This document shows positions 36,795-64,000 of a stretch of 64,000 nt of DNA, in pieces. The translations under genes and the position numbers were made by a program. The stretch comes from a virus. Taxonomy: Duplodnaviria > Caudoviricetes. The stretch lies in IMG/VR virus record IMGVR_UViG_3300038968_000070, positions 59,914-123,913 of that record; one strand, written 5' to 3'. Every line of letters starts with the position of its first letter. The first letter of the stretch is position 1. The notes beneath the pieces were generated by a model. It was not told where the DNA came from, searched no databases, and was given only the letters and a program-made list of their open reading frames with translations.

Positions 36795-37106
36795 TCAGCG
36801 CCGACAACGACGCCACGGCCCCGGCGTCCGTGACTTGATCATGCAGCGGCGTGCGGTGTCAGGGTCGTAGCGTTTCATCGCGAACGGGCGGTACGCTGCG
36901 ATGAACTTGTCCCTGGGCCAACCGCGGCGGCCCGGCCCGAGTCCTTGGCTTGACTGCCAGTCGAGGATGCGTCCGCGGCGTTCGATCCACGCGTGCTGAA
37001 ACACGCGTCCCGACCACGGATCGTGGACCTTCGCGTGGACGACGACGTCGCCGGTGCGTGCGTTCGCGACCGCGTAGCCGAAACAGTCGCCACAGGCGAT
37101 GGTCAC
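36795..37106 (-). CDS. minimal transglutaminase/papain-fold Cys-His-Asp protein
   Basis: GDCF..FQHAWIE..ILDW. Confidence 0.6.
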   Translation of the reverse strand: MTIACGDCFGYAVANARTGDVVVHAKVHDPWSGRVFQHAWIERRGRILDWQSSQGLGPGRRGWPRDKFIAAYRPFAMKRYDPDTARRCMIKSRTPGPWRRCRR

Positions 37107-37525
37107 TTCGCGCCCGCGCGCGACAGTGCCGACAGCCGTTCGAGGTTCGCGAGGAGCGCCTCAGCTGCGGCGCCGAGCCGGCCCGCCTCGATCTCGGCGA
37201 CCACGCCGATCGCCTGCGCGATCTTCTCCTGCGCGATGAGGAGCGCCCGCGCCTCGTGCTCGGGCTTGATCTCGACGCCGGCGGCCTTCGCCAGCTTCCT
37301 GAAGCGGTCGAGGTACGCGTTCACGGCGGCTTCGTTGTCGTTGAAGACGCCGTTCTTGATCGCGACGACGATGACCGCGACCGCGACGGCCGCCCAGCGG
37401 TCGACTTCGGCGGCGGTCGCCGCCCGCTTCTTGCGCCAGGCGCTCACGCCGAGCCAGCCGAGGACGGTGCTGACGCCAGTGACGACGGCGTCGGGGTTGT
37501 TACGGACGAGGTCGAGGATGCTCAT
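37103..37525 (-). CDS. membrane protein
   Basis: Two hydrophobic segments; GGAG RBS. Confidence 0.7.
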   Translation of the reverse strand: MSILDLVRNNPDAVVTGVSTVLGWLGVSAWRKKRAATAAEVDRWAAVAVAVIVVAIKNGVFNDNEAAVNAYLDRFRKLAKAAGVEIKPEHEARALLIAQEKIAQAIGVVAEIEAGRLGAAAEALLANLERLSALSRAGAK

Positions 37526-37575
37526 GATTTCGGGCTCCGTATTACGGTGGTGTTGGCGGAATTACAGGCGCGATA

Positions 37576-38301
37576 TCAGCGCAGCACCGCCCGCGCGCCG
37601 TAGAACGCCGCGCCGCCGAGCGCGAGTGCGCCCGCGCCCATCGCCACCATGCCCAGGGTCGTCATCCACCAGCGGCCGGTCGCGCTCATGAACGTGCTGC
37701 GCGAGACCTCGGTGCCCGACGCCGGGCGGCTCTCCGACGGCGCGATCTCGACGTAGTCCTTGTACTCGCCGGCGAGCGTACCCTGCGGCACCGCGACGCG
37801 GTAGACGCGCTTCCAGCCGTCGTAGAACCAGATCTTCGTCGGGGCGAGCGGCCCGCCGCCGCCGTCGGGCGTCGTCATCGACGGCGGCGCCCAGACGGCG
37901 CCGGGCGTCTGCGCGTAGTCGCTCACGAGCGCCCAGCTCGCCTTGCCACCACCGGGCGTCGGCGGCTGCGGAACGCCGCCACCGGTGGCGACGTTGTGAA
38001 TGCCGATCGCGATGACCGCCTTGGCGATCGAGCTGGCGTGCTTGCGGATGAGCGCGAACAGCTTGTCGGCCTGCGTCTGGTCGTACTGCGCGAATGCCCA
38101 GATCACCGGCGCGAGCGTCGAGACCTCCGAGGGGATGCCCGGCGTGCGCGGCAGCATCGCGACGACCGCGCCGGCGGTCTTGAGCCCGACCTTGCCGTCG
38201 ATCGGGCCCGGGTTCGCGGCGGTGTAGCCCGTGGTCTGGGCGTACGTCGTGAGCACCTTCTGAAGCTCTTCGACGCTACTATCGTAGGGCTGCGCGGCCA
38301 T
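37576..38301 (-). CDS. peptidoglycan-binding-like protein with C-terminal TM
   Basis: VEELQKVL..PGPIDGKVGLKT; terminal TM. Confidence 0.7.
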   Translation of the reverse strand: MAAQPYDSSVEELQKVLTTYAQTTGYTAANPGPIDGKVGLKTAGAVVAMLPRTPGIPSEVSTLAPVIWAFAQYDQTQADKLFALIRKHASSIAKAVIAIGIHNVATGGGVPQPPTPGGGKASWALVSDYAQTPGAVWAPPSMTTPDGGGGPLAPTKIWFYDGWKRVYRVAVPQGTLAGEYKDYVEIAPSESRPASGTEVSRSTFMSATGRWWMTTLGMVAMGAGALALGGAAFYGARAVLR

Positions 38302-38313
38302 GGACGTTTCCTT

Positions 38314-39636
38314 TCAGCGGGTGGCGAGGACGGTGGCGAGCGAGGCAGCGGCAACGCCGCCGACCGCGAGGCCGATCTTCGTAGAGGTGCGCCGCCAGAA
38401 CGGCAGCGTCGCCTTCTCCCAGGTGTGCTTGTTCACGAGCGAGACGCCGGCGGGGATCGCTTTCAGCGCGCCGGCCGTGAGCACGACGTGCGTGGTGCCG
38501 TCGCCGGGGTGTGGGATGGCGACGCGGTAGCCGCCGAGTGAGCTGTCGTACCAGGCGATGCTCCCCGTCGGGTACTGCGGCGTCGGCGGCGTGACGACGC
38601 TTCCGCCCGTGACGATGCGCGGGTCGAGCGCATGGGCGCCGGGGATCGTCGCGGCGTTGCTGGCGCCGCTTGCGGTCTGCGACTTCCAGCCGGTCGTCGC
38701 CGTGACGGTCGTCGCCGTGACGATCGGCGACGCGGGAAGCGGCTGATCGGGTCGCGGCTCGCACGGCGGCGGCGGCGCCATGTAGCGCGCGCAACCGGCG
38801 AGCGCGACTGCCCACGCCGCAGCGTAGGGGTTGCCGCTCGCAGCGGCGGCGCCGCTCGTGGTGGTCGTCGACCCCGACTTCGGCTTCTCCTCCAAGTCCT
38901 TGTACATGTCGATGGCGACCCGCGCTTGCTGCGCCTTCTCGCCGGTGATCGTCGAGCAGAACTTGTCGAAGCTCCACTCGATACCGCTCGCCGCCGTGCG
39001 CATGACCTTCTCCCACGTGTCCTCGTAACGGACGCGCACGCTGTACTCGACGCGGTTCTCGCCGGGGCGGTAGTAGCCCCAGAGCTGCACCGTCTCGACG
39101 TTGCTCGGGAGCCACGACGGCTTGTACCAGTCGATCGGCTGGTGGCTCGTGAACGCGCCCGTCGCGGGGTCGATCCACAGCATGTAGCCACCGCGGCGCG
39201 CGAAGTTCGCCGCCGTCTCGTTCGGGTCGGGGCGGATCTCGACGTGGACGACGCCGTAGTCGAGCGCGAGCTTGCCCTGCGTCTTCGCCATGACCTGCGC
39301 CATCGTCAGGTCGCGGTATTCCTTCCAGTTCTTGAAGACGTTCTGCGTGTGCATCCGGCTGCGCTCGGCCATGAGCCGCAGGATCGCGCTCGCCGCCGGC
39401 GTCCCGAGCGGCGTGAAGCTCGCCCAATAGCGATTGCCGCCGGGTGCGAGCCACGCCTGCGGCCCGGCGACGTCGGCCCATGGGATGACGACGGCCCAAT
39501 ACTTCTGGCTATCGCTGCATCCGCCCGCGGTCGCCGTGCCCGGCATACACGTCGCGCCGTACTTGAGCAGCCCCGGCTGATCGCGCGGGAGCTGCGGAGG
39601 ACGGAGCGGGTCGACCCGCGGGCACATCTGAGCCAT
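38314..39636 (-). CDS. putative virion membrane protein with C-terminal TM
   Basis: Shares (W/F)YD..YRVA(I/V)P domain with 37576-38301; downstream of GATC-dyad promoter. Confidence 0.75.
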   Translation of the reverse strand: MAQMCPRVDPLRPPQLPRDQPGLLKYGATCMPGTATAGGCSDSQKYWAVVIPWADVAGPQAWLAPGGNRYWASFTPLGTPAASAILRLMAERSRMHTQNVFKNWKEYRDLTMAQVMAKTQGKLALDYGVVHVEIRPDPNETAANFARRGGYMLWIDPATGAFTSHQPIDWYKPSWLPSNVETVQLWGYYRPGENRVEYSVRVRYEDTWEKVMRTAASGIEWSFDKFCSTITGEKAQQARVAIDMYKDLEEKPKSGSTTTTSGAAAASGNPYAAAWAVALAGCARYMAPPPPCEPRPDQPLPASPIVTATTVTATTGWKSQTASGASNAATIPGAHALDPRIVTGGSVVTPPTPQYPTGSIAWYDSSLGGYRVAIPHPGDGTTHVVLTAGALKAIPAGVSLVNKHTWEKATLPFWRRTSTKIGLAVGGVAAASLATVLATR

Positions 39637-39643
39637 GTGGGTC

Positions 39644-39672: not shown

Positions 39673-39698
39673 GGCGGTTCGTGTTAGCGTTCAGGGAG

Positions 39699-40436
39699 AT
39701 GCAGCGCTCCATCTTCCGTTCGCCGTTGTTCTGGGGAGGCGTGGGCATTCTCGCGGCTGGCACCGCCGTCGCGTTCCACCGCAAGCGGGAAGCGTTGCTC
39801 GGACGTGAGAAGGCGGGGCCGGAGCCGTTCTTGGTGCAGAGGAACAACGCGACGATCCCCCCACCGACCCAGGTGACGAAGGCAGGCGGGTACACGGCGC
39901 GGCGGTATACGACCGACCGTTTCTCGATTGACCAACGTCTCCGCTTGATCCAGGAGAACGTGTTCACCGGCATTCAGGACGGACGCATCCGTCATCTCGC
40001 TGGGCAGCTGACGAAGCATTGCGGGCGTGACGACGGCCCGTGTGAGGTGCAAGCGGTGTTCGACGCGGTGCGGAAGCACGTGCGTTACAGTGGAGATGTC
40101 GGCCCGGTGATCGATCCGAAGACGGGCGTCGTCGACGGTGTGGACCTCTATGCGTCACCTCATCGCGTGTGGACGTCGCAGATCGGCGACTGTGACGACC
40201 ACGTCGCGTTGATCGCATCGCTCTTGGCGATCATGGGGCACGAGGTCAGGCTGCGTGTGACGGCGCCATCACGCTTTGGTGAATTCGCCCACATTTACGC
40301 GGCGGTGGGGACCCCGAAGATCGGGCCGAGGAAGTTTCGTGCGGTCGACACGACGTTGCCCTGGCGGAACGCGAACGTCGGTAGCGAGGCGAAGTACGGT
40401 CGCGCGCGGGACTACGTCGTCGAGGTCCCGGCTTAG
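39699..40436 (+). CDS. transglutaminase-like cysteine protease with N-terminal TM
   Basis: VRYSGD, GDCDDH, HIY, VDTT (Cys-His-Asp triad). Confidence 0.85.
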   Translation: MQRSIFRSPLFWGGVGILAAGTAVAFHRKREALLGREKAGPEPFLVQRNNATIPPPTQVTKAGGYTARRYTTDRFSIDQRLRLIQENVFTGIQDGRIRHLAGQLTKHCGRDDGPCEVQAVFDAVRKHVRYSGDVGPVIDPKTGVVDGVDLYASPHRVWTSQIGDCDDHVALIASLLAIMGHEVRLRVTAPSRFGEFAHIYAAVGTPKIGPRKFRAVDTTLPWRNANVGSEAKYGRARDYVVEVPA

Positions 40437-42042: not shown

Positions 42043-42407
42043 AGTGCTCCTGCGGCCACATCCTCCCCGACCCGGTGATCGCCTGCGACGGCGCCGCGAC
42101 GCCGCCGCTCGTCTGCGCGCGCTGCGCCGCCGTGCAGACGTTCACCACGCCCGGCGACGACATCCTCTTGACGCAGTTCGTGACGGCGCCCGACGCTCAG
42201 AACATGGCCAACAACGTCCAGAAGCCCTTCGGCGATCGCTCTCCCTGCCCGGTCTGCGACGAGATGATGCCGTCGCCGGTGATCAACGACGGCAAGCCGA
42301 CGACGACGTCTTGCGGCAACTGCGGGACGCGGCGTACGATTCAGGTGTCGGATCCTGGTGACGAGGCGTCGAAGCCCGTACCGCCCGACGGCAAGCTCTG
42401 GAACTGA
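42039..42407 (+). CDS. duplicated Zn-ribbon protein
   Basis: Two C..C..PxPVI..CxxC units. Confidence 0.65.
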   Translation: MKCSCGHILPDPVIACDGAATPPLVCARCAAVQTFTTPGDDILLTQFVTAPDAQNMANNVQKPFGDRSPCPVCDEMMPSPVINDGKPTTTSCGNCGTRRTIQVSDPGDEASKPVPPDGKLWN

Positions 42408-42883
42408 TGACCCCCCTCGCCGATCTCCGCCGCGCCGTGCTCGACCTGGACAACGTCCCGGCCGGCACGCCCGTCGTGCTCCAAGCGAGCTACGGCGAAC
42501 GGCCGAGCCTCACCTACGACGCGCCGAACGGCGTCGTGCGGTTGAACATCGGCGGCGGTCAGCCACAGGGGCGGCCGACGATGGGTCAGCTGCGCGCGTG
42601 GCTCGGGCTGCCGCCCGCCGGCGGCAGCGGCGGCAACCTCGCCGGCTTCTGGGACAGCGCGCGGCTGCGCGAGCCGTCGACGTGGCGTGGCATCGCGACG
42701 TTCGCGAGCGCGGCCGTCAGCGGCTACCACGGTGTGAAGCGCAACGGCGGGAGCGTCTTCTGGGGTGCGTGGTGGTTCGCGTGGGGCGCGGCGTTGCCGG
42801 GCCTCGCGCCGCTCGTCGCCGTGGCGCAGGGCTACGGCGACTGCGCCAACAATTGCCGGCGTGCGCCGACGGAGAAGCGGTGA
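42407..42883 (+). CDS. membrane protein (YHGxKR family)
   Basis: GYHGVKRNGGSVFWG..AQG. Confidence 0.7.
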   Translation: MTPLADLRRAVLDLDNVPAGTPVVLQASYGERPSLTYDAPNGVVRLNIGGGQPQGRPTMGQLRAWLGLPPAGGSGGNLAGFWDSARLREPSTWRGIATFASAAVSGYHGVKRNGGSVFWGAWWFAWGAALPGLAPLVAVAQGYGDCANNCRRAPTEKR

Positions 42884-42887
42884 TCTG

Positions 42888-43154
42888 ATGGCGAAGTCGA
42901 AGCTCAACCCTCGTGCGTATCGCCTGTCGTTCGGCGGGACGCGCGCCAAGAAGTACGCACCGACGAAGCGCGAGGCGTACAAGGATGCGCGCTACTGGAT
43001 CGCCTTCGGTCAGATGAAGGTCTGCGTCGAGAAGCGGCTTCCGTCGGGCGATTACAAGCAGGTCGGCTGTGTCCGTCGGAAGAAAACGCGACCGTTCTCG
43101 ATTCGGTCCCGCGCGACAGACGCGATCGAACGCAACATGAACGCGCGCTGGTGA
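42888..43154 (+). CDS. small basic protein
   Basis: MAKSKLNP start; K/R-rich. Confidence 0.6.
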   Translation: MAKSKLNPRAYRLSFGGTRAKKYAPTKREAYKDARYWIAFGQMKVCVEKRLPSGDYKQVGCVRRKKTRPFSIRSRATDAIERNMNARW

Positions 43155-43167
43155 TACACTCACCGTC

Positions 43168-43434
43168 ATGGCCAAGCTCAACCCCGACGCCTCCGCCGCC
43201 ATCTCCGCCGCTCGCGCCGGCCGCTGCCGCGACGCGATGAAGCACCTCTACGACGCCTCGCCGCACGTGCAAGGGCGCGGCTGCGACAGCATGACGTCGG
43301 CGGAAGCCAACGCCTATCGGCAAGCCAACCTCGTCGTCGCGGGGCTGTGCACCGTGCAGACGAAGCCGAAGCACTACAAGTCGACCGGCTTCGACGGCGC
43401 GCGCCGCCGGCGGCGCCGCACGCGCCGCCGGTGA
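43168..43434 (+). CDS. small basic protein (GxC family, Arg tail)
   Basis: RAGRCRDA; FDGARRRRRR. Confidence 0.7.
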   Translation: MAKLNPDASAAISAARAGRCRDAMKHLYDASPHVQGRGCDSMTSAEANAYRQANLVVAGLCTVQTKPKHYKSTGFDGARRRRRRTRRR

Positions 43435-43470
43435 CACGCCGGGCGCGTCGGTGATACGCTCACCGTCACC

Positions 43471-43725
43471 ATGAACCTCGGCTACCACACCTGGAACCAG
43501 GAAACCCGCCTCGCCGGCCTCGGCTCGCCCGTCGGCACTGCGTGGTCGCTCCTCAGCCTCGCGTCGTTCGCCGCCAGCGCCTACCACGGCAGCAAGCGGC
43601 ACGGCGGCAGCATCGGCTACGGCATCCTCTGGGGCGTCCTCGGCGGCGTGTTCCCGGTGCTGACGCCGGCGATCGCGGCGGGCCAGGGCTTCGCGCAGTG
43701 CAAGTACAACTGCCGGGGGCGGTGA
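43471..43725 (+). CDS. membrane protein (YHGxKR family)
   Basis: LAGLG; AYHGSKRHGGSIGYG..GQG. Confidence 0.7.
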   Translation: MNLGYHTWNQETRLAGLGSPVGTAWSLLSLASFAASAYHGSKRHGGSIGYGILWGVLGGVFPVLTPAIAAGQGFAQCKYNCRGR

Positions 43726-45521: not shown

Positions 45522-46187
45522 ATGGCGAAGCACGGCCCCGAGGCTCACTACATCTCGCCCTACGTGACGTACGTGACCAGCCAACGCCAGCCGTCCGTCG
45601 GCGCCGGCTTCAACCCGGTGAACGACACGGCCGCGATCGCCGCGCGCTTCGTCGCCCCGACCGGGCTCGCCGGCCCCGTCGGCAGCATCGAGCTGATGGG
45701 TCGTGGCTGGCGCGGTCGTCGCCGGCTGCGGCTCCTCGGCGCCGCCGACGCGGCCCCGCCGTCGGACCTGCGTCTGCGCTGGATCAACTTCTGGGCGCGC
45801 GTCCGCGCCAATCTGGCGGCGAGCAAGCTCGCGCGGCAGATGCGCCGCAACGACGCGCCGACGGTCGTCACCGTCGACACGTCACCGCGCGGCCCCGCCC
45901 CGAGCGCGACCGCGCTGCCGGTCAAGAGCGGCTGGTCGCCGTCGCCGCAGAGCGCCGCCACGGCCGCGATCAGCGACGTCGGCTTCACGCCCGGCCAGGG
46001 CGACCCGCCCAACATGGGCCCGGTCGTCACCGCCGTGCAGATGGACCCGCGCGGCGCCGCGTTCCCGGCCAACTTCTGGGACCGCGTGATCCGTCAGGGC
46101 TACCCGCCCGTCGTCGCCGCGCGCGCGCAGGAGGACGTCCTCACCAAGTGGTTCGGCGTCAAGTCGCCGACCAACGGGGGTTGGTGA
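45522..46187 (+). CDS. putative virion protein
   Basis: First gene of capsid operon; GLAG, LMG, LLGA. Confidence 0.7.
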   Translation: MAKHGPEAHYISPYVTYVTSQRQPSVGAGFNPVNDTAAIAARFVAPTGLAGPVGSIELMGRGWRGRRRLRLLGAADAAPPSDLRLRWINFWARVRANLAASKLARQMRRNDAPTVVTVDTSPRGPAPSATALPVKSGWSPSPQSAATAAISDVGFTPGQGDPPNMGPVVTAVQMDPRGAAFPANFWDRVIRQGYPPVVAARAQEDVLTKWFGVKSPTNGGW

Positions 46188-46390
46188 TGGCGTCAGCGAT
46201 CACCCTCGACGGTCCGTCGCCGCGGCGTGAGCGGCGCGCGCGTGGTGGCGGCCTCGGCGCCGTCGACAACGACGGCTGTCGGTGCAGCGTCCGCCCGAAC
46301 CCGAAGACGGGCAAGCGCATCCGGCTGTGCCCGGTGCCCAAGACGAAGTCGCACCGCTCCGGCTGGAAGATCGTCGGCAGCTGTCCCTGA
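46187..46390 (+). CDS. small basic Cys-rich protein
   Basis: TGATG coupling; GGLGA. Confidence 0.65.
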   Translation: MASAITLDGPSPRRERRARGGGLGAVDNDGCRCSVRPNPKTGKRIRLCPVPKTKSHRSGWKIVGSCP

Positions 46391-46464: not shown

Positions 46465-47028
46465 ATGAGCGGAACCAACCTCGCCGGCGACCTCGGCGAC
46501 TACATGCCCCGGGGCCTGATGGAGTGGGCGCCGGTCATCGGCGCCGGCGCCGCGTCGAGCGGATCCGTGCTCGCGCGCATGTTCGGCGGCGCGTCCTGGG
46601 CCGGGCGCAACCCCGACCTGGCGGGCTGGCTCCTGTCGCTGGCGGCCGCCGGCGGCGTCGCCTACTTCGAGAGCAAGTCGGCCGGCATGATGGTCGCGCT
46701 CGGCGGCACCGCCGTCGCGCTGCCGAAGATCCTGGAGCGCCTCGCGTCGGGCGCCGGGCTCCTCGGCTACTACGCGGCCGAGACCGCCAACCCGCTGCTC
46801 GCCGGTGGGGTGGGCATGGTCCGCGCCGATCAGATCAACGGCCTCGGCTACGCGACCGCGTCGCAGCAGCCGCACGCCTACGGCACCGTCCCCGGCGTCG
46901 CCGGCTCGGGCGCCTTCGCGGGCCCGATGGCCGACAACGGTGGCGGCGCGCCGGTGAACCTCCTCGGCCCGCCGTCGAACCACATGTCGCTCGCCAAGCA
47001 CTACGGCGCGACGCACATGGGCGGCTGA
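46465..47028 (+). CDS. Gly-rich multi-TM virion membrane protein
   Basis: AAGGAG RBS; hydrophobic segments; directly upstream of capsid candidate. Confidence 0.75.
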   Translation: MSGTNLAGDLGDYMPRGLMEWAPVIGAGAASSGSVLARMFGGASWAGRNPDLAGWLLSLAAAGGVAYFESKSAGMMVALGGTAVALPKILERLASGAGLLGYYAAETANPLLAGGVGMVRADQINGLGYATASQQPHAYGTVPGVAGSGAFAGPMADNGGGAPVNLLGPPSNHMSLAKHYGATHMGG

Positions 47029-47138: not shown

Positions 47139-47849
47139 ATGTCCATGGGCACCGTCGGCGTCGCACCCGGCACCACCACGTTCACCCTCCAGGACGGCAC
47201 GGTCATCAGCCTCGCCGACTGGATCGACGATCGCGTCTTCAGCACGATCCAGCTGAGCAACGGCCAGTCCGGCTCGCTGGAGTGCTTCGGCGCGGGCCTG
47301 TCGCAGCAGATCCCCGGCGGCACGCGCACGCTGACGTCGGCGGACACCAACCTCCAGCGGCCGGGCTCGAACGGTCTCCCGCAGGCGTACGAGCTGCTCG
47401 TCTTCTCGATCGGCATCGACTTCGTGCGCGCGTGCCGGCCGCAGACGGGCCAGTCGCAGCCGGTCATCGGCGACAGCTCGGGCGCGCTCTCCGAGGCGCT
47501 CCGGTACTCGACGTTCTTCGGCATCAACCGCCTGACGAACGTCCAGTTCAAGTACCGCGAGAAGACGTACGCCGAGGGCGTGCCGGTGAACTTCCCGAAC
47601 GGGCGCGGCGCGTGGATCGACGTGACCACGTCGGACTTCGAGGTCGTGAACAACGGCCGCCCGGACCCGCGCTCGCGCAACTCGATGGTGCTGCCCATCC
47701 GGCTCCAGGAGAACCTGAGCTTCAAGCTCGTGTTCGCCCCGCAGTCGCCGCTCGTGATCTCGCAGGACGCGACCGACGGCGGCACGGACCTGACGTTCGT
47801 CGACGCCAAGGGCGAGCTGAACGGACTCTACAAGCGCCCGGTGGTCTGA
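47139..47849 (+). CDS. candidate major capsid protein (jelly-roll-type, inferred)
   Basis: Beta-rich 236 aa; AGGAG RBS; strongly biased codons; followed by terminator; no HK97 features recognised. Confidence 0.6.
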   Translation: MSMGTVGVAPGTTTFTLQDGTVISLADWIDDRVFSTIQLSNGQSGSLECFGAGLSQQIPGGTRTLTSADTNLQRPGSNGLPQAYELLVFSIGIDFVRACRPQTGQSQPVIGDSSGALSEALRYSTFFGINRLTNVQFKYREKTYAEGVPVNFPNGRGAWIDVTTSDFEVVNNGRPDPRSRNSMVLPIRLQENLSFKLVFAPQSPLVISQDATDGGTDLTFVDAKGELNGLYKRPVV

Positions 47850-47938: not shown

Positions 47939-47967
47939 AAGGGGACCTCGATTCGAGGTCCCCTTTT
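47939..47967 (+). terminator. intrinsic terminator
   Basis: AAGGGGACCTCG..CGAGGTCCCCTT stem ending in TTTT. Confidence 0.8.
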
Positions 47968-47985
47968 GTCGTCCAAGGAGCCTTC

Positions 47986-49632
47986 ATGCCTCAGCCGTTG
48001 ATCGACTTGACCGGACGGCGGTTCGGTCGGCTCGTCGTCTGCTTTCGCGCGCCCGCGGAGCCGGGCAAGAAGCCGCAGTGGGTCTGCAAGTGCGACTGCC
48101 CGGCACAGACGATCAGGATCATCTACGGCTACTCGTTGTTGCGTGGCGACTCGACCTCGTGTGGCTGTGCACAACGCGAGGGTATGTCGGCGCGCCGCAC
48201 GAAGCACGGACGGCGGCGGATCGCGGATCCGGGTGCGTTCGGTGAAGACCGACGTACGCGTAGCTCAACGTACGGCTCGTGGTCGGCTATGAAGTCACGG
48301 TGCAAGGACCACCCGCGCTACGCCGGGCGCGGGATCAAGGTGTGCCCACGGTGGCTCGGGCCTACCGGCTTCGACAACTTCGTTGCGGACATGGGTGAGT
48401 GTCCCGAGGGGATGTCGCTCAACCGGTTGAGCAACGCAGGCAACTACTGCGCGGCGAAGTGCGGCGGCCTTTGTGGACACACCGAGAGCAACTGCGAGTG
48501 GGCCACGCACACGAAGCAGATGCTCGATCGTGACCACATCCGGCGCTTCACCGACGACGAGGTAAAGGACATCGTCGCGCGCACCGTCGCGCGACAATCG
48601 CAGGAGCACATCGCGCGGGTGTACGGCGTCGGTCGGCGAGTGATTCGACGCGTCCTCCGCGACGCGTTCGCGACAGCGCCGCGTACGCCTACGAAGGCGC
48701 CGTCGCATCGCGTGCGGCTAACACGTGAGGTTGACGTCGCCGGGCATATCGCCGCCCTCCGTCGTGACGGTTTCCCGTGGGCTGCGCTGGTGGATGATGA
48801 AGGTGACTCGCTCGCGCTCGTTCGTGCGGCCAAGGTTACGGTGCGCGGCGACGAAGTCGTGTCCATCAGCGGCGCCGGGCAATGGACGTGCCTCGACGCC
48901 AATCGACATCGGTTCGACGCGCGGCATCTCGGACAGCCGTCGGTCGTGGCGGCGTTCGCCGATGACGAAATCCTCGCACGTGCGATCAGGTACAGGATGG
49001 ATCGGGGGTACCGCATCACGGCCCGCGCTGTCTTGCGGACGCTTCGCGCGATGATTCACGCCCCGAGCAACTTCCCGCCGGCACTCGCGCGTTGGCTTGT
49101 CGACGAGTACGCCCCTGAGGGTGGCGTTGTCCTCGACCCGTGCGCCGGGTTCGGCGGGCGACTTCTCGGCACCGTCGCGAGCGCGCGCAACGCGCGCTAC
49201 GTCGGCTTCGATGTCGAGCCGCGAACCGTCGAGGGCAACCGCGCGCTTGCCTCGCGGGTCGGTGTTGCCGATCGAGTCGATGTTGTGTGCCGTAGCGCGG
49301 TCGCACCTACCGTGTGGCCCCGCGCCGACGTCGTCTTGACCGGGCCGCCGTACTTCAACTTGGAGGACTACGGCGACGCCTCGCGTGTCTTGCACGCGGC
49401 TTACGAGGACTGGCGTGACGACTTCCTTTGCGGGCTCATCACGCGCGCACTGGCGGCCGCGCCGGTCGTGATCCTCAACGTTGCGCACGTCGGCAAGCAC
49501 GACATGCCGGCGGACGTGTGCGAGATCGCTAAAGGTTTGGGCGCGCGCGTGGCGCGTGTCATCACGTGGCCGCTGCGAGAATTCAACCGGCGCAGCCACC
49601 CTGAGAAGATCCTCGTGCTGCGCGCGGCGTGA
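47986..49632 (+). CDS. HNH-type endonuclease-like domain + HTH + amino-DNA methyltransferase fusion
   Basis: DLTGRRFGRL..SCGC..YAGRGIKVC..NCEWAT; LDPCAGFGGR; TGPPYFNLEDY. Confidence 0.8.
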   Translation: MPQPLIDLTGRRFGRLVVCFRAPAEPGKKPQWVCKCDCPAQTIRIIYGYSLLRGDSTSCGCAQREGMSARRTKHGRRRIADPGAFGEDRRTRSSTYGSWSAMKSRCKDHPRYAGRGIKVCPRWLGPTGFDNFVADMGECPEGMSLNRLSNAGNYCAAKCGGLCGHTESNCEWATHTKQMLDRDHIRRFTDDEVKDIVARTVARQSQEHIARVYGVGRRVIRRVLRDAFATAPRTPTKAPSHRVRLTREVDVAGHIAALRRDGFPWAALVDDEGDSLALVRAAKVTVRGDEVVSISGAGQWTCLDANRHRFDARHLGQPSVVAAFADDEILARAIRYRMDRGYRITARAVLRTLRAMIHAPSNFPPALARWLVDEYAPEGGVVLDPCAGFGGRLLGTVASARNARYVGFDVEPRTVEGNRALASRVGVADRVDVVCRSAVAPTVWPRADVVLTGPPYFNLEDYGDASRVLHAAYEDWRDDFLCGLITRALAAAPVVILNVAHVGKHDMPADVCEIAKGLGARVARVITWPLREFNRRSHPEKILVLRAA

Positions 49633-50562: not shown

Positions 50563-50565
50563 CGT

Positions 50566-51396: not shown

Positions 51397-51720
51397 ATGG
51401 GGTGCGGCTGCACGTCGACCGAAGGTGGCAACTCCGGCGGGGGTGGGAACGGTCACGACTACGTCGCGTTCACGTACATTTGCAGTGGCGCGGAGGGCTC
51501 CGACTTCACGATCACGATTCCCGTCCCCGATAGCCCGTTGCTCAACACCAGCTACATCCCGCAGGTGACGTGCGGCGGCGTCAGCACGATCCTGGCCTTC
51601 GACTGTCCTTTCGGAGATCGGACCGTGAACGACTTCCGGGTGATCTCCACGGCGGCGGTCACCGCCGGTGACCGACTCGACGTCGTCATCCACTACACGA
51701 CGTCGTCGCCGCCGACATGA
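51397..51720 (+). CDS. putative spike-associated protein
   Basis: Beta-rich; precedes spike. Confidence 0.6.
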   Translation: MGCGCTSTEGGNSGGGGNGHDYVAFTYICSGAEGSDFTITIPVPDSPLLNTSYIPQVTCGGVSTILAFDCPFGDRTVNDFRVISTAAVTAGDRLDVVIHYTTSSPPT

Positions 51721-51728
51721 GGTGACCC

Positions 51729-53423
51729 ATGGCCAAGACGTTCAACGCGGAGCGGGTTTCTCTCGGTACGGGCGCGCCCGAGCTTTTGTCAGGCGCCGCC
51801 GATCCGTCGGCCGGCGCCGGCGTCGCGGCACCAGTCGGGTCGGTGTACCTCCGCAGCACGACCGACGAGCTGTGGCAGAAGTTCGGTGTCGCAGACACGG
51901 ATTGGGCGCTCGTCGGCGGGTCGAGCCTTGTCGGCTTCACGACGGCGACCGACACCGCGCTTGGTGTCGGCGCCGGTGACGCGCTCACGACCGGCGCGCG
52001 CAACGTGGCCGTCGGTACCGACGCGCTCGGCGCGCAAACCACGTCGAATGACAGCACCGCGCTCGGGTACAACGCGTTACTCCTCGCGACCACGGGACCG
52101 AATACGATGGTCGGCAGCCTGGCGGGCGCCGCGATCACGTTGGGTCCTCGTAATACCGGCGTCGGATTCAGCGCGCTCGGCGCGTTGCAGACGGGTCAAG
52201 ACAATACAGCCGTTGGGCATTTCGCGCTCGCGACGTCGACGGGGAGCAACAATACGGCGGTGGGCACCTTCGCACTTACGGGGGTCACCACGGGCACGCA
52301 GAACACTTCCGTGGGCGCGAACGCGCTCGGCGCTGTCTCGACCAACGGAAATTGCACCGCTGTTGGCGCGCGCGCGCTCGCCGTCAACACGGCTGCCGAT
52401 AACACCGCCGTCGGCGCTAACGCGCTCGACGTCAACACGAGCGGTACGCAGAACACGGCCGTGGGCCGCAACGCGCTCGGCGCGATCACGACGAACGGGT
52501 CGTCCACCGCCGTCGGACATCACGCGTTGCTATTCGCGACCGGGTCGTCGAACACCGCCGTGGGCGCGCTGGCCGGCGATGCCGTCACGTCGGGCTCGCA
52601 GAACACGATGGTCGGGTACAACGCGGGCAGCGCGTCGACCGTGGCCCAGAACGTCACGGCCGTCGGTTCCAACGCCGCCGCGGCGAACACGGCGAGCGGC
52701 ATCACGGCCGTCGGATACAACGCGCTCACCGGCAACACGAGCGGCATCAACAACACGTCCGTCGGCAACCGTTCGCTCGAAACCATGACGCTGGGCTCCA
52801 ACAACACCGCTGTTGGTGGCGCCGCACTCTTGAATTCGGGCTCCGACGACTGCACCGCCATGGGCTACCTTGCCCTCTTCAACGTGACCAGCGGCTCGCA
52901 GAACACGGGCATCGGCACCAACGCTGGCGACACCATCACGACGGGCGCACGCAACACGATCCTCGGTGCTGGCGCGGACGTGGATGCCGGCACGCGGACG
53001 GGCGCGATCGCGATCGGTATCTCGGCGGCCGGAACGGGCGCCACCGCTACCGTCGATGACGGCCTCTTCTTCCACACCGCGCTCGCGACGGTCTCCGGCA
53101 CTGCGGTCGAGTACGACGCCGCAACCGGTCAGATGGGACCGATCGCCAGCTCGCGGCGCTTCAAGACCGACATCGAGCCGCTCGGACGTGACGTCGACTC
53201 GTCGAAGGTCTTCGATCTCCGCGAGGTGAGCTACACGCTCAAGTCGAACGGCGCGCACGAGATCGGCCTCATCGCCGAGGAAGTCGCGGAGCTGTACCCG
53301 CAACTCGTTCCGCTCGACAACGAAGGGCGCCCGCAGGCGGTCAAGTACGACCGCGTGGTCGTGCTCTTGCTCGCGGAGCTGCGCAAGCTGCGCGACCGCG
53401 TGGCGCAGCTCGAAGCACGCTAG
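51729..53423 (+). CDS. spike/fibre with NTAVG beta-roll repeats and C-terminal peptidase S74 intramolecular chaperone
   Basis: Many ~14-aa NTAVGxxAL repeats; SSRRFKTDI..IGLIAEEV..VKYD..coiled coil. Confidence 0.88.
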   Translation: MAKTFNAERVSLGTGAPELLSGAADPSAGAGVAAPVGSVYLRSTTDELWQKFGVADTDWALVGGSSLVGFTTATDTALGVGAGDALTTGARNVAVGTDALGAQTTSNDSTALGYNALLLATTGPNTMVGSLAGAAITLGPRNTGVGFSALGALQTGQDNTAVGHFALATSTGSNNTAVGTFALTGVTTGTQNTSVGANALGAVSTNGNCTAVGARALAVNTAADNTAVGANALDVNTSGTQNTAVGRNALGAITTNGSSTAVGHHALLFATGSSNTAVGALAGDAVTSGSQNTMVGYNAGSASTVAQNVTAVGSNAAAANTASGITAVGYNALTGNTSGINNTSVGNRSLETMTLGSNNTAVGGAALLNSGSDDCTAMGYLALFNVTSGSQNTGIGTNAGDTITTGARNTILGAGADVDAGTRTGAIAIGISAAGTGATATVDDGLFFHTALATVSGTAVEYDAATGQMGPIASSRRFKTDIEPLGRDVDSSKVFDLREVSYTLKSNGAHEIGLIAEEVAELYPQLVPLDNEGRPQAVKYDRVVVLLLAELRKLRDRVAQLEAR

Positions 53424-54645: not shown

Positions 54646-55500
54646 ATGGCGACGCCTCAGCAGCTCTGCGCGAACCTCCACGCGCTGACCGACACGATCA
54701 GCGGCGGGTACCTCTGGATCGTGCGGACGTTCCCTGACGCCGCGGGCGTCAGTGCCGCCGCGCGCGCGGTGCAGATGGCCAACGAAGCGCCGGTGCCGCC
54801 TGACTACGCGCCGCTCTGTGCGGCCGCGCGGGATTGGCAGTCGTCGGACGGACAGGAGAAGCTGCTCAACGGTATCGCGGTGTGGGGTCGCGACAAGGGC
54901 TTCGATCGCTACGCGCTCGGCCCTGTCGTCGGGTTCGCGCTGTGGCGCGTGCTGACCAACCCGCGCGCGCACAACCCGAGTGATCCGATGGCGACGGTCG
55001 CGTACGCCGCGACGACCGTCGTCACGCTCGCGAAGGACGGCTCCGTCGACGCCGTGTCGTACGCACCGCTGTGGCAGCTCGTGCTCAGCGACGCGAGCGT
55101 TCGCGTCCGCGTCGGTGCGATGAAGGGCTTGCAGGCGATCCTCCGTCGGGGCGTCTACAAGCTCTTGCCCGGAGAGGTCGCGAAGGCTGAGGCGTTGGCG
55201 CAACAAGCCAGGCAGCGCGGGGCGACGGTGCCACCGAGTCAGCGCAACGAGTACATGATCGACGCGGACGCGCTGCTCGGGGCGGTCGGTACGGTCAAGA
55301 CGCGGTTGGAGCTGATCGCCGCCGGGTACGCGCCCGCCGCCGTGGCGACGCAGGCGCCATTTCCGCCCGGCCCAAGCGACTGGCCGAACCCGAAGGTTTG
55401 GCCGTGGTGGTCGTGGGCGGCGATCGCGGCCGGCGGCCTGACCGTCGTCGGCGGCGCCGCAGCGCTCGCGTTGCGCTCGCGCGGCCCCGCGGCTGCGTGA
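54646..55500 (+). CDS. putative virion protein with C-terminal TM
   Basis: WPWWSWAAIAAGG TM. Confidence 0.75.
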   Translation: MATPQQLCANLHALTDTISGGYLWIVRTFPDAAGVSAAARAVQMANEAPVPPDYAPLCAAARDWQSSDGQEKLLNGIAVWGRDKGFDRYALGPVVGFALWRVLTNPRAHNPSDPMATVAYAATTVVTLAKDGSVDAVSYAPLWQLVLSDASVRVRVGAMKGLQAILRRGVYKLLPGEVAKAEALAQQARQRGATVPPSQRNEYMIDADALLGAVGTVKTRLELIAAGYAPAAVATQAPFPPGPSDWPNPKVWPWWSWAAIAAGGLTVVGGAAALALRSRGPAAA

Positions 55501-55512
55501 TACGCTGGGCCC

Positions 55513-56448
55513 ATGGCCACGCAGGAAGCGCAAGTCAAGGGCGTTCAGGACATCATGGCCAACGTCCAGGCCGCGTACGATTCGCTGAATCGTGGCCGCG
55601 CGACGTTGAACCGGTTGATCCAGAACGGCGTCGCGACGTGTCAGGACGTCAAGGTCTACAACCTTCAGGCGCGGGCGGTGTGGGCGTACCAGGAGAGCGT
55701 CGCTGGCATCATCCGTCAACAGGGCGGGCAGGCGCCGGTGGTTCCGTTGCCGGTCTACGTCGGCTGGCGCGGCATCTCCGGTGACCGCTTCGCGGACGTC
55801 GACTGCTCGTCTCCGTCGCTCGCAGGCCCCGGCGGCGCCGTGACGATGTTCGTCGACCCGCGATCGGTCGAGTGGCGTCAGGAGGTCATCCCGACGGACG
55901 CCGCCTACGTGCGGAACCTGATCGATCAGGCCGGCGCGGCGGCGACGTCCGCCGCCAACCAGGCCGGGCTCGGGGCGTTCCCTGTGGCGGCGATCCCGAT
56001 CATCATCGTCGGTGTCTTCGTCACCGTCGCGCTCGTGATCGTCCTCAAGATCGCCGAGGTCTTCATGGACATCCCGGGCAAGCGGGAGACGACCAAGCAG
56101 ATCGCCGCGCAGGCGACGGCGCACGACGCCGTCATGCAGAAGCGCGAGAGCTGCTACACGTCGTGCGTCAACACCGGCAAGGACCGCACCGCGTGCGCGC
56201 GGGACTGCGCGCGGCTCTACGAGACGCCCAAGTACAAGCTCCCCGAGGGCATGTTCGGTGGGCTCGCGGGCAAGATCGCCGGCGTCGCTGTCGTCGGGAT
56301 CCTCGCCTACGCCGGCTATCGGTTCGTCAAGGGCGGCGGCGTCGATCGTCTGCGGGACCGGCTCCCGAGCGGCGATGACCGTGACGACGACGACGGCGTC
56401 GACGTCGGCGGCGGCATGACGGTCTTGCCGGCGCGGCGCTCGGCGTGA
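55513..56448 (+). CDS. putative virion membrane protein (two TM)
   Basis: AGLGAF then TM; Cys cluster; second TM. Confidence 0.75.
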   Translation: MATQEAQVKGVQDIMANVQAAYDSLNRGRATLNRLIQNGVATCQDVKVYNLQARAVWAYQESVAGIIRQQGGQAPVVPLPVYVGWRGISGDRFADVDCSSPSLAGPGGAVTMFVDPRSVEWRQEVIPTDAAYVRNLIDQAGAAATSAANQAGLGAFPVAAIPIIIVGVFVTVALVIVLKIAEVFMDIPGKRETTKQIAAQATAHDAVMQKRESCYTSCVNTGKDRTACARDCARLYETPKYKLPEGMFGGLAGKIAGVAVVGILAYAGYRFVKGGGVDRLRDRLPSGDDRDDDDGVDVGGGMTVLPARRSA

Positions 56449-59776: not shown

Positions 59777-60439
59777 TCACTCCGCGGCGGGCGAGCCCGG
59801 CCGCATGATCATGACGGCGGCACCGATGCCGACGGCGAGGATGACGCCGCCGACGATGAACGGCAGGTTCTTCTGCGAGAAGAAACCGGGCTTGGCCGGC
59901 TGGAATCCCGGCGGCGGGTAGACGTCCGGCGTGACGTTCGTCGCCGCCGGCGTGATCGACGTCCCCGATCCGGTGGCCGGCGGGATCGCTGGCGGCGCCG
60001 TTGCCGGAACCGCGCCACGGATCGCCGCGAGCGTGTTGCTGATGGCGTCGGCGTTCTTGGCGACGGCCTCGGGCGTGTTGTACACGAGCAAGGTCGCACC
60101 GAGCGCGATGCCCTGCGACGACGCCGTACGGGCGACCGTCGAGAGCGCGTTGACGGTGCCGGCGCCGACCTTGCCGTCGACGGTGACCCGCGTGTTGGCG
60201 CGGAGCGCGTCGCCCGCCTGATTGATCAGGCTTTGCATGTTGCGGATGTTCGTGTCGCAACTCGGGCAGTTGCTCGACGCCCAGATGTCGCCGTACTGCT
60301 TGACGCCGACTTGCTGCGCGGTCGCACCCAGCTGCGGGGCGCCCGCGTACTGGTTCAGCGGCGCGGTGTCGTTCGCCGGCGCGCGGCCGAAGCCGCCACC
60401 GGAGAAGCCGCCACCGGACAAGCCGAAGTTGCTGAGCAT
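59777..60439 (-). CDS. peptidoglycan-binding-like protein with C-terminal TM
   Basis: IRNMQSLI..VDGKVGAGT; FGLSG, QLGA; TM. Confidence 0.7.
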   Translation of the reverse strand: MLSNFGLSGGGFSGGGFGRAPANDTAPLNQYAGAPQLGATAQQVGVKQYGDIWASSNCPSCDTNIRNMQSLINQAGDALRANTRVTVDGKVGAGTVNALSTVARTASSQGIALGATLLVYNTPEAVAKNADAISNTLAAIRGAVPATAPPAIPPATGSGTSITPAATNVTPDVYPPPGFQPAKPGFFSQKNLPFIVGGVILAVGIGAAVMIMRPGSPAAE

Positions 60440-60446
60440 AGGGGGT

Positions 60447-60475
60447 AGGTTACATGTGATCGGGTGACCGATCCA
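60447..60475 (-). promoter_or_regulatory. GATC-dyad promoter
   Basis: TGGATC-17 bp-TAACCT, ATG 7 nt later. Confidence 0.75.
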
Positions 60476-60501
60476 GGGGGTTGCGTGATACGTTGCCATT
60501 C

Positions 60502-61398
60502 ATGGGCCTGCCCCCCGCGAGCGTCCTGTTCCAGCCGGTGACCTGTATGCCGGCGTGGGTCGGCAAGTACGCCTTGCTGCCCAACACGACGGTGGCGTCG
60601 GGGTGCAGCACCGCGAACGGCAACGTGCAGTGCGACCCGCGCGCGATGGCGACCGCGGCCGCGAAGAAGACGGGACTCCCCGTCACGCTCGAAGCGTACA
60701 CGCTCGCACGCTACGTGACGTCCGAGGTCGGGACGCGCAGCGTGCCCGAGCGCGTCGCCGTGTTGCAAGCAGCGCTCAACCGCGCGCGGTACGTCGAGCG
60801 GCTCCCGAGCGTGCTCAACCTGTTGCTCTACCGCCAGTCCCCGACGGGGGCGCAGGCGGCGCACCGTGGCTACTACGGACCGATCCACAGCGGCGGTGAT
60901 CTCGCGGCGCCGTACGGTCGATGGGCGTCGACGGCGCGCGACCCGGCGTACTCGAACATCGCGCTCGCGATCGCGGTCTTGAACGGCGAGATCCCGGAGA
61001 GCTTCTCGAAGGGCGCCGACGACCAGTACGGGCCGGAGATCTTGGTCACCAAGCAAGGGCTCGCGGTGACGCAGAACGGCGTCCGCCGGCGCGGCGGCGA
61101 GCATCGCTATTGGGTCGGCCCGCTCCCCGGCGTCGACCACATGCGGACGTTCCTCTACACGACCCGGCGCGACATCTCGCCGACGTCGCCCGAGGGCAAA
61201 GCGCTCATCGAGCGCGGCGTCGCCGCGATCAGCTCCGGTCGCCCGAACTGGTCGGGCTTGACCGTCTGCGCCGCGGAGCCGGGTATGCTCGACACGCCGG
61301 GCGCCAAGGCGGCGGCGGTCGTGGTCGGCGGTGCGACGGCGGCGGCACTCGCGGTGGTCGGCGCGGCGGTGTGGCGGCGGCGTCGGGTGATGGTGTAG
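60502..61398 (+). CDS. SleB/Hydrolase_2-like cell-wall hydrolase with C-terminal TM
   Basis: TLARYVTSEVG..AVLQAALNRA; TM then WRRRR. Confidence 0.65.
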   Translation: MGLPPASVLFQPVTCMPAWVGKYALLPNTTVASGCSTANGNVQCDPRAMATAAAKKTGLPVTLEAYTLARYVTSEVGTRSVPERVAVLQAALNRARYVERLPSVLNLLLYRQSPTGAQAAHRGYYGPIHSGGDLAAPYGRWASTARDPAYSNIALAIAVLNGEIPESFSKGADDQYGPEILVTKQGLAVTQNGVRRRGGEHRYWVGPLPGVDHMRTFLYTTRRDISPTSPEGKALIERGVAAISSGRPNWSGLTVCAAEPGMLDTPGAKAAAVVVGGATAAALAVVGAAVWRRRRVMV

Positions 61399-63098: not shown

Positions 63099-63108
63099 GA
63101 GCACCGCC

Positions 63109-63390
63109 ATGCCCTGGAAGAAGCTCAAGGTCGATCGCGGGTGGCCCGCCACGTGGCAGCGCTGCGGCAAGAACGCCAGCGGCCGTGAATACTGCGTCCT
63201 CATGACGAAGGAGAACGGCAAGTTCCGGTGGGGCTGGACGCAGGACAAGCACGAAGTCGACCCCATCAACGGGTGGTCGCGCGTCGTCGGCGGCTCCGCG
63301 CGCAAGACGAAGGAGTACGCTGACGACTACCTTCGTTACCTCGTCGGCAAGGGCGGCACGCTCGGGCGTCGCGGGCGGAGGCGGCGATGA
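63109..63390 (+). CDS. small protein with Arg tail
   Basis: AGGAG RBS; TLGRRGRRRR. Confidence 0.7.
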   Translation: MPWKKLKVDRGWPATWQRCGKNASGREYCVLMTKENGKFRWGWTQDKHEVDPINGWSRVVGGSARKTKEYADDYLRYLVGKGGTLGRRGRRRR

Positions 63391-63584
63391 GCTTGCTCGC
63401 CGACCTCAAGTCCGCGTTCCGCCGCGGCGACTGCGCGACCGCCCGCGCGATCGTCAGCAAGATGAACGTCCGCGCGAAGACGCCGGCCGAGCGCGAGCAG
63501 ATCTACCGCTTGCAAAACGCCGTGCGGCGTTGCCGCGTTCGCGGCGTCGCGGGCGTCAGGCGTCGCCGCAGGCGGCGGCGCTGA
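63387..63584 (+). CDS. small basic protein (GxC family, Arg tail)
   Basis: RRGDCATA; VAGVRRRRRRRR. Confidence 0.7.
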   Translation: MSLLADLKSAFRRGDCATARAIVSKMNVRAKTPAEREQIYRLQNAVRRCRVRGVAGVRRRRRRRR

Positions 63585-63598
63585 AGGAGAAAAACGTC

Positions 63599-63850
63599 AT
63601 GCCGATCCGCCGTACGACTTCCACCTCGCGCGCGTTGAACGACGTGCGCGCCGCCGCCTACCTCGCCGATGTGGGGCGCTGCGACGAGGCGAAGCGCAAG
63701 CTCGCCTTCGCCGAGGCGGTTCTCGACACGGCGTCGGGCGGCCAACGGCGCGCGCTTCGTGACGAGATCAAGGCCGCGCGGGGCTCGTTCCGTTCCTGCG
63801 GCATCACGCTCGCGGGTGCCCGGCGGCGCCGGCGCAGGCGCCGCCGGTGA
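63599..63850 (+). CDS. small basic protein (GxC family, Arg tail)
   Basis: AAGGAG RBS; VGRCDEA; LAGARRRRRRRR. Confidence 0.7.
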   Translation: MPIRRTTSTSRALNDVRAAAYLADVGRCDEAKRKLAFAEAVLDTASGGQRRALRDEIKAARGSFRSCGITLAGARRRRRRRRR

Positions 63851-64000
63851 AGCTCGCGCTCTTCGGTGCCGCGGCCGCGCTCGCCGGTGTCGCCGCGTTC
63901 CGGCGCCGGCGGCGTCTCGGCGCGACGAGCCGTAAGGGCCCGCGCACCGGCGCCGTCGAGATCGACATCGTCGAGATCAACAAGCGCGTCGAGCAAGCGC
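63847..64000 (+). CDS. partial ORF: N-terminal TM, poly-Arg, LGA
   Basis: MKLALFGAAAALAGVAAFRRRRRLGATSRK. Confidence 0.55.
   Translation, partial: MKLALFGAAAALAGVAAFRRRRRLGATSRKGPRTGAVEIDIVEINKRVEQA

Follow-up and report, generated by a model that had tools for sequence, protein, structure and literature searches.

Gene content of the window

The stretch of DNA analysed here (the window, 64,000 nucleotides) is the second half, positions 59914-123913, of the single 123,913-bp contig of record IMGVR_UViG_3300038968_000070, and it probably carries the structural half, together with the replication block, of the complete genome of an uncultured and widespread lineage of bacterial viruses. The genes that concern us most are those for two predicted jelly-roll proteins, which are capsid candidates, together with a transglutaminase-like protein, a series of membrane-anchored proteins and a fibre/spike-like protein. 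The 103 bp at the start of the contig equal the 103 bp at its end, which indicates a complete genome of about 123.8 kb; IMG/VR classes the ends as direct terminal repeats, and CheckV gives a completeness of 67% although the genome is complete. The GC content of the window is 63-70%.

Genes were called by third-position GC bias, which yielded 200 genes, and one more that the caller had missed (49712-50212, third-position GC content, GC3, of 0.90) was added. The Pfam scan covered the 186 predicted proteins of at least 60 amino acids in the whole genome, and the PHROGs scan covered 128 proteins, including all those of at least 110 amino acids. Orthologs were compared in a 126.5-kb relative, G001, which has 96 of the 201 genes in common with this genome, mostly at 30-65% identity; other relatives (L007 and L008) and remote ones (L018, L020 and L022) were also used. 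Coordinates refer to the window unless a genome position is given or one of the pieces of the genome's own coordinates (L001, L002 and L003; L003:9204-9947 corresponds to genome 48204-48947) is named.

Two predicted jelly-roll proteins are the capsid candidates

The original prediction, made from the letters of the window, had singled out two beta-rich proteins as capsid candidates, and structure prediction gave a jelly-roll fold for both. The product of g175 (47139..47849, plus strand, 236 amino acids) is modelled as a single jelly roll with a predicted local distance difference test score (pLDDT) of 79, and its structure prediction and conservation make it the candidate major capsid protein. 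The second protein (49712..50212, plus strand, 166 amino acids, pLDDT 87) is, from its structure prediction, a candidate for a second capsid or penton protein. The structural match lists of both jelly rolls have many shell proteins of membrane-containing viruses in their upper ranks.

The g175 protein is 90% identical to its ortholog in G001, the maximum for the genome (the family-A DNA polymerase, PolA, reaches 70% and most others 30-65%), its gene displays the highest GC3 of the genome (0.98), and it heads a family of 241 clusters found only in metagenomes. A full-length paralog of 247 amino acids (31.5% identity, E 6e-23) is encoded outside the window, at genome 48204-48947 on the minus strand, and is 42% identical to its own ortholog in G001. 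In the remote relative L018, a 34.5-kb contig, and also in L022, homologs of g175 stand in tandem (244 and 259 amino acids, L018:10001-11536); L018 also has a transglutaminase-like gene, its SNF2/DUF3987 replication block is divergent, and again no tailed-phage families were found in it. The order of genes for proteins of about 200, 60-80, 190, 236, 166, 110 and 275-305 amino acids persists in relatives whose capsid protein is only 43-58% identical, and in relatives the two jelly-roll genes are adjacent. Because of its highest conservation, highest GC3, paralog and kept gene order, the 236-residue protein is the one we consider the main shell subunit. Both jelly-roll proteins are probably shell proteins, and we infer that they form the shell. 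In another remote relative, L020, a gene of the 247-residue paralog type adjoins an exonuclease/Sak4-like pair.

The peptide VG(V/I)APGTTT opens g175, its 247-residue paralog, a membrane-anchored protein of 383 amino acids and an open reading frame near 35858 (minus strand) that was missed by the gene caller; besides 35858, its positions are window 47139 and 34860 and genome 48929. It is kept in G001, including the ortholog of the 383-residue protein, and in the g175 model it corresponds to a low-confidence N-terminal arm. Such a shared peptide is compatible with a common docking or processing signal. Paralogy between the 236- and 166-residue families was undetectable using hhalign, and comparison of the capsid region with cultured phages by megablast and tblastn returned nothing useful. 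A separate observation concerns a 228-residue protein on a 1.5-kb contig (P0093), which combines a part 94% identical to one third of the 236-residue capsid candidate with an FtsK gamma domain (PF09397) and is probably an assembly chimera.

A transglutaminase-like protein is homologous to a virion protein of SSIP-1

Gene g161 (39681..40436, plus strand) encodes a transglutaminase-like protein of the papain fold (Pfam Transglut_core, 5.9e-4) that is a homolog of the virion protein gp34 of SSIP-1, annotated as 'structural protein'. The two proteins align over 168 amino acids at 28% identity (BLASTP E 1e-15), with the Cys, His and Asp residues aligned, and a profile built from five g161 orthologs matches gp34 at 5.8e-16. 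Among 50,697 phage records, SSIP-1 was the sole match of g161 (E 5e-9). A transglutaminase-like gene is found beside the capsid module in every relative examined. Judged from its sequence, g161 is a candidate maturation protease and may act by cleaving precursors.

Comparison of the SSIP-1 proteome with the genome by sequence, profiles and hhalign revealed nothing in common beyond g161/gp34. When the g175 model was searched against BFVD, the top template modelling (TM) scores (0.44/0.49 and 0.34/0.32) belonged to two unnamed entries of 211 and 256 amino acids, which, having exactly the lengths of the adjacent SSIP-1 structural proteins gp46 and gp47, may be these proteins. SSIP-1 gp40 gave no match at E ≤ 10 in the genome or in G001.

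Membrane-anchored proteins are numerous and conserved

The original prediction had counted more than ten membrane-anchored proteins between 37103 and 64000, which proved overstated. Within this span five proteins have clear C-terminal anchors (37576, 38314, 54646, 59777 and 60502), that at 55513 is multi-pass and two or three contain internal segments; with a loose threshold the number rises to 15. Three of the membrane proteins (37103..39636, minus strand) are transcribed divergently from the transglutaminase-like gene and comprise 140, 241 and 440 amino acids, the latter two with C-terminal anchors that are kept in the G001 orthologs at 34-47% identity; searches of PHROGs and other collections gave no family match for the three. 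Further along, a C-terminally anchored protein of 284 amino acids and a multi-pass protein of 311 (54646..56448, plus strand) have orthologs in G001, L007 and L008, and a divergent pair of C-terminally anchored proteins (59777..61398) consists of 220 amino acids on the minus strand and 298 on the plus strand, the larger being 67% identical in G001. The 383-residue anchored protein (33754..34905, minus strand) has a poly-Arg tail and begins with VGVAPGTTT, like the capsid candidate.

A hydrophobic segment followed by basic residues at the C-terminus is thus displayed by proteins of 102-440 amino acids at 33754, 37576, 38314, 54646, 59777 and 60502, and by four more elsewhere in the genome. Nine of the C-terminal anchors, counted genome-wide, are kept in the G001 orthologs despite an identity of only 34-72%.

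Hallmark genes of tailed phages and a packaging enzyme are undetected

The Pfam families returned for the whole genome belong to replication, nucleotide metabolism, methylase, integrase, glycosyltransferase and similar functions, and no terminase, portal, capsid, tube, sheath or baseplate family was among them. Morphogenesis matches in PHROGs were limited to tail-fibre, spike and virion-protein families on the 564-residue protein at 51729-53423 and on a 1261-residue protein with cadherin/Ig repeats, where the match, to a 'virion structural protein', is weak. At E ≤ 1, neither the genome nor G001 gave a six-frame match to Terminase_6N, TerL_ATPase, Phage_portal, Phage_capsid or Pox_A32, whereas the control genomes did. 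A large terminase is accordingly absent at the sequence level from Pfam/PHROGs and six-frame searches of the two genomes. For the portal, Phage_portal had no match at E ≤ 1, and the unassigned conserved proteins of at least 300 amino acids are, from their sequences, membrane-anchored or coiled-coil. As for an HK97-fold capsid, no hidden Markov model (HMM) matched, and the most conserved structural protein is a predicted jelly roll, two proteins having been folded in all. The absence of recognisable terminase, portal, HK97 capsid and tail genes noted in the original prediction therefore extends from the 64-kb window to the whole genome and to G001. No terminase, portal or HK97 capsid was recognised in the rest of the contig, and both capsid candidates are predicted to fold as jelly rolls, so the idea of a tailless virus stands. 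We infer that the particle contains a membrane and has no tail.

A 'portal protein' match to PHROG phrog_15528 was rejected as an artefact: it covers 50 of the 794 profile positions and falls in the NUDIX domain of a 141-residue enzyme (L003:16153-16578). The same profile gives matches in all 14 of the 14 cellular control genomes, and its NUDIX-like segment, at profile positions of about 518-621, is an annotation trap.

A packaging ATPase of the FtsK/HerA type had been expected outside the window. The other 60 kb were searched, and this expectation failed. Canonical Walker A motifs occur in just four proteins of the proteome and of all six frames, three of them within the replication block, and each of the four is better assigned to another function. 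One, of the MoxR-like AAA+ type, is paired with a DUF2201/VWA protein; another, g112, is Sak4-like (AAA_24) and forms part of a recombination cluster that includes a PD-(D/E)XK exonuclease, and in a remote relative the Sak4-like gene travels beside the exonuclease, as recombination pairs do. The remaining two are a SNF2 helicase and g121 (551 amino acids), whose nearest named relatives are helicases of the NrS-1/VapE type. Looser Walker A/B scans of the proteome and the six frames produced no further P-loop candidate; these scans, and the lack of a Pox_A32 match at E ≤ 1 in the genome or G001, leave no candidate for an FtsK/HerA-type packaging ATPase. A comparison of three ATPases with the PDB by phmmer gave nothing useful. 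Two proteins were considered and ruled out: g121 (Walker A GAPGSGKS) as the packaging ATPase, on account of its nearest named atlas clusters (NrS-1/VapE-like helicases) and its location in the replication block, and the Sak4-like g112 as the counterpart of SSIP-1 gp40, to which it has no similarity.

The proteins of at least 280 amino acids in common with G001 are assigned enzymes, a fibre, a long coiled coil or membrane-anchored proteins, with the sole exception of g059, an unassigned, helical-looking protein of 355 amino acids that is 24% identical in G001. Since no unassigned P-loop protein remains and no terminase profile matches, a hidden tailed-phage module is disfavoured.

Fibres, spikes and small basic proteins

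Downstream of the jelly-roll genes, a protein of 107 amino acids and a fibre/spike protein of 564 amino acids with a C-terminal intramolecular chaperone are encoded on the plus strand (51397..53423), as assigned by PHROG and Pfam. The larger protein (51729-53423) matches PHROG tail spike, fibre and virion-protein families (3e-41 to 8.6e-7) and ends in a Pfam Peptidase_S74 domain (2.6e-9), in agreement with the spike that the original prediction had placed in this part of the window. In G001 the pair is located elsewhere, beside the g008 ortholog.

An N-terminal domain of about 100 amino acids is common to a beta-helix spike-like protein (L001:986-2797, minus strand) and the 1261-residue protein with cadherin/Big_9 repeats (L003:855-4640, plus strand), and it also matches G001 35145-35483. 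This domain is probably a common virion anchor, as expected for exchangeable receptor-binding proteins that share an anchor. The annotated starts of the beta-helix and 1261-residue genes seem too early. Among the 105 proteins of at most 130 amino acids, 28 have an isoelectric point (pI) of at least 10.5.

Neighbours of the capsid genes

The capsid operon opens with two basic proteins (45522..46390, plus strand), g172 (221 amino acids, pI 11.2) and g173 (80 amino acids, pI 11.5), which are conserved in G001 and L007. Just 5' of the capsid gene lies g174 (46465..47028, plus strand), a hydrophobic Gly/Ala-rich protein of 187 amino acids with a GC3 of 0.97 and 64% identity in G001; all relatives have a protein of similar size at the same position. 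Following the jelly-roll genes, the beta-rich proteins g177 (111 amino acids) and g178 (275 amino acids; 50227..51393, plus strand) are candidates for vertex or penton proteins by their conserved position, which is kept among relatives (106-111 and 275-305 amino acids); Pfam, PHROG and atlas searches gave no assignment for either.

Between the two jelly-roll genes, a gene for an HNH endonuclease and DNA methyltransferase (47986..49632, plus strand; PHROG HNH 2.4e-43, with methyltransferase matches) represents a mobile insertion. Its GC3 is 0.80 against 0.90-0.98 in its neighbours, and it is not at this site in G001, L007 or L008; other relatives have different small opposite-strand genes at the same intergenic site, or nothing. 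The gap between the jelly-roll genes thus looks like a hotspot for mobile insertions. Just past the capsid gene, at about 47950-47980, a GC-rich hairpin, GGGGACCTCGATTCGAGGTCCCC, is followed by TTTT; it was read by eye and was not reported by the terminator scanner.

Further upstream (42407..43725, plus strand) lie g164 and g167, small hydrophobic proteins that are paralogous to each other (E 7e-13), with two small basic open reading frames between them. Both g164 (42407-42883) and g167 (43471-43725) have a hydrophobic C-terminal half and a C-x3-C ending (CANNC and CKYNC, respectively), and they are conserved in G001, L007 and L008 as well as in the remote L018.

Replication block and other genes

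The replication and recombination block (821..15632, both strands) encodes PolA with a uracil-DNA-glycosylase-like (UDG-like) domain, ThyX, the Sak4-like ATPase, the PD-(D/E)XK exonuclease, the SNF2 helicase and the SF3/VapE-like helicase. A PolA replicon had been described within 37103-64000; the polymerase is present in the window, at 821-3604 and hence outside that span, and its N-terminal domain belongs to the uracil-DNA-glycosylase superfamily (1e-19). A separate 3'-5' exonuclease subunit of 290 amino acids is encoded about 4 kb from the polymerase. Genes for an integrase and for a ParB-like protein are present in the genome as well.

Several small proteins (g077, g128, g145, g151, g152, g125 and g127) are joined by a common C-terminal module detected by BLAST and constitute an expanded paralog family, located at window 16646-33757 and genome 47469-47924. 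The first half of the genome contains four tRNA genes (Arg-TCT, two Ile-AAT and Met-CAT), at L002:18720-18948 and L001:7569-7645, and the window none. Right after the terminal repeat, L001:112-747 encodes a basic protein of 211 amino acids with a HELAH zinc-protease-like motif and a weak SprT-like match (E 0.083).

Occurrence and probable host

Near-identical sequence is found in sludge and wastewater metagenomes from several studies, and one wastewater DNA run contains an 8.2-kb contig about 97% identical to a region of the window. Metatranscriptome runs with 17% of the sampled words were rejected as a sign of expression, as their matches were confined to GC-rich snippets of 20-58 nucleotides in unrelated contigs. 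One homolog of the 166-residue protein was binned with a Tessaracoccus genome, a mere hint at the host, which is probably a member of the Actinomycetota living in activated sludge; Tessaracoccus and further Propionibacteriaceae are host candidates.

Discussion

The gene content described above is best explained, in our judgement, by a large tailless membrane virus of the SSIP-1/SPV1-like kind with a jelly-roll shell over a membrane and no recognisable packaging motor, a reading we hold to be reasonably probable. In place of an HK97 head and tail, small jelly-roll proteins would form an icosahedral shell around a lipid membrane modified by the virus. The 236-residue protein would be the main building block and the 166-residue protein a second shell or vertex protein, while the 247-residue paralog, and possibly the 111- and 275-residue proteins, would take second-subunit or vertex roles. 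Many C-terminally anchored proteins would populate the membrane, among them the 383-residue protein, which mimics the N-terminal peptide of the capsid protein and may tie the shell to the membrane. The transglutaminase-like cysteine protease homolog would be built into the virion and may process precursors, and fibres and beta-helix spikes with their common N-terminal anchor domain would bind the host.

The lack of a recognisable packaging NTPase leads to two possible routes for the genome into the particle. The DNA may be condensed by small Arg-rich proteins and then wrapped, as in SPV1, or it may be packaged by an enzyme or motor of an unrecognised kind. A more specific proposal, that this is a widespread bacterial lineage with genomes of 85-130 kb in which a protein-condensed core is wrapped in membrane and jelly-roll shell without a motor and matured by the built-in cysteine protease, is put forward only tentatively, and we consider it rather doubtful. 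To our knowledge, such motor-free core-and-shell assembly is known only from a 20-kb archaeal virus and partly from adenoviruses (core proteins and protease), and never in bacteria or at this genome size.

Several observations weigh against a tailless membrane virus. The structural matches of the two proteins are generic to jelly rolls, with no standout, and their scores do not set membrane viruses apart. Neither jelly-roll family could be linked by sequence or profile to any solved capsid protein (profiles against PDB sequences) or to any SSIP-1 protein. It is in tailed phages that fibre/spike domains with an S74 chaperone are typically found, and the richness in Arg of the small proteins may be due in part to a GC content of 67%. 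The packaging ATPase of SSIP-1 (gp40), of Singelaviria and of Varidnaviria is missing here. Finally, the virus is known from its sequence, and two of about 200 proteins were folded, which leaves room for an HK97 protein, a portal or a terminase too divergent for HMMs.

This last point is the core of the main rival, an ordinary tailed phage (Caudoviricetes) whose hallmark genes lie beyond the reach of HMMs and in which the jelly rolls serve as cement or decoration or belong to fibres. In its favour are the flat lists of fold matches, the presence of fibre domains and the fact that few proteins were folded. The large terminase, however, is normally the easiest phage gene to detect, and nothing was found at E ≤ 1 in two genomes; no P-loop protein is left unassigned, and neither is any conserved soluble protein of at least 300 amino acids, save the weakly conserved, helical-looking one of 355. 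A decoration protein would moreover be unusual as the most conserved protein of its genome, and the only cultured phage to which the structural module could be linked is tailless. Taken together, these results make a tailed phage unlikely.

The two other explanations that we weighed are less likely still. A true member of Singelaviria (sphaerolipovirus/P23-77) would have two vertical single-jelly-roll proteins arranged in pseudo-hexameric capsomers and an FtsK/HerA-type ATPase filling a preformed membrane-lined shell. The adjacent genes for 236- and 166-residue jelly rolls recall this arrangement, chains of SH1, HHIV-2 and HCIV-1 (about 225-229 and 135-175 residues) are among the structural matches, membrane proteins are many, and the integrase and ParB-like gene suggest temperate or plasmid-like carriage. 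Against this, neither the 124 kb nor G001 contains an FtsK/HerA-type ATPase, the solved capsid proteins share no sequence or profile similarity with the candidates, the two jelly-roll proteins are without detectable mutual paralogy, the structural scores fail to distinguish these viruses from other jelly rolls, and the genome is four to seven times larger than those of the group members. The sphaerolipovirus-type affinity suggested in the original prediction is thus not shown, since the jelly-roll matches are generic and profiles found no solved capsid protein, and we consider membership improbable. We give a similarly low weight to another build in which the jelly rolls are not an icosahedral shell, for example a particle that is enveloped or pleomorphic and has a nucleoprotein core, or a plasmid-like element displaying surface structures. 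Such a build would be consistent with the lack of a packaging motor of any known kind, with the many small basic and membrane proteins, and with the integrase and ParB-like protein. A jelly-roll protein that is a virus's most conserved gene product is nevertheless most often the shell, the g161 homolog of SSIP-1, the only one found in a cultured phage, belongs to an icosahedral virion, the presence of fibres and spikes points to a particle able to adsorb to cells, and the P-loop survey found no conjugation ATPases, so that a non-icosahedral or non-viral build accounts for less than a tailless membrane virus does.

Large phage genomes are generally assumed to require an HK97 head, a portal and a terminase. 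In the literature searched, the tailless membrane viruses of bacteria have genomes of about 10-44 kb, and full-text searches turned up no account of tailless bacterial viruses as large as this one; measured against that literature, the virus would be an undescribed and much larger variant of a known virion type. If the proposed build is true, the size limit for this type of virion would be roughly tripled, and a major unseen group would be added to the wastewater and soil virome, as the family has hundreds of clusters in sludge, wastewater and other metagenomes. It would also raise the mechanistic question of how 124 kb of DNA enters a membrane-lined shell without a recognisable motor. Marker-based tools score such genomes as incomplete or unclassifiable.

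Comparison with known systems

Jelly-roll cement proteins occur in some tailed phages (Helicobacter phages KHP30 and KHP40, cyanophage Pam1), which differ from this virus in having an HK97 capsid, a portal and a terminase, none of which is detectable here. Singelaviria, a realm created only in 2025 for viruses whose two capsid proteins are vertical jelly rolls (PMC12714852), is compared here together with Helvetiavirae; the group comprises Sphaerolipoviridae (SH1, HHIV-2, HCIV-1), Simuloviridae (SNJ1) and Matshushitaviridae (P23-77, IN93) (PMC12714852, PMC12643093, PMC12642351). Their genomes of 16-31 kb encode a conserved FtsK/HerA-type ATPase, which is absent here, and no sequence or profile similarity to the present genome was found.

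SPV1 (Sulfolobus polyhedral virus 1, Portogloboviridae, PDB 6OJ0) has a shell built of jelly-roll proteins, a layer of lipid inside it and a core of nucleoprotein, and none of its nine functionally assigned open reading frames is a packaging ATPase (PMC8459092). The lack of such an ATPase is a point of likeness to our virus, in which a core is suggested by Arg-rich small proteins only (the 28 with a pI of at least 10.5). SPV1 differs in its archaeal hyperthermophile host, its 20-kb genome and the lack of a polymerase of its own, and it shows no sequence similarity to either jelly-roll family (profiles against PDB sequences).

Among bacterial viruses of the tailless membrane build, the largest in the literature searched is SSIP-1, with 44 kb (PMC6260650). 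The present genome is far above any described bacterial virus of this type, which agrees with the unusually large size noted in the original prediction, and is nearly three times larger than the SSIP-1 record (43,788 bp, circular). The two viruses further differ in that SSIP-1 has a RecA-like virion ATPase, gp40 (AAA_25, 5e-11), with no counterpart here, lacks the PolA replication block, and infects a halophilic bacterium of the Bacteroidota type, whereas the host here is probably a sludge actinobacterium. They resemble each other in the transglutaminase-like protein, a circular-type genome, an integrase, adjacent small structural proteins without a Pfam family and the absence of tailed-phage genes. 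The nearest concrete links of this genome are to SSIP-1, through one common virion gene, and to SPV1, by architecture.

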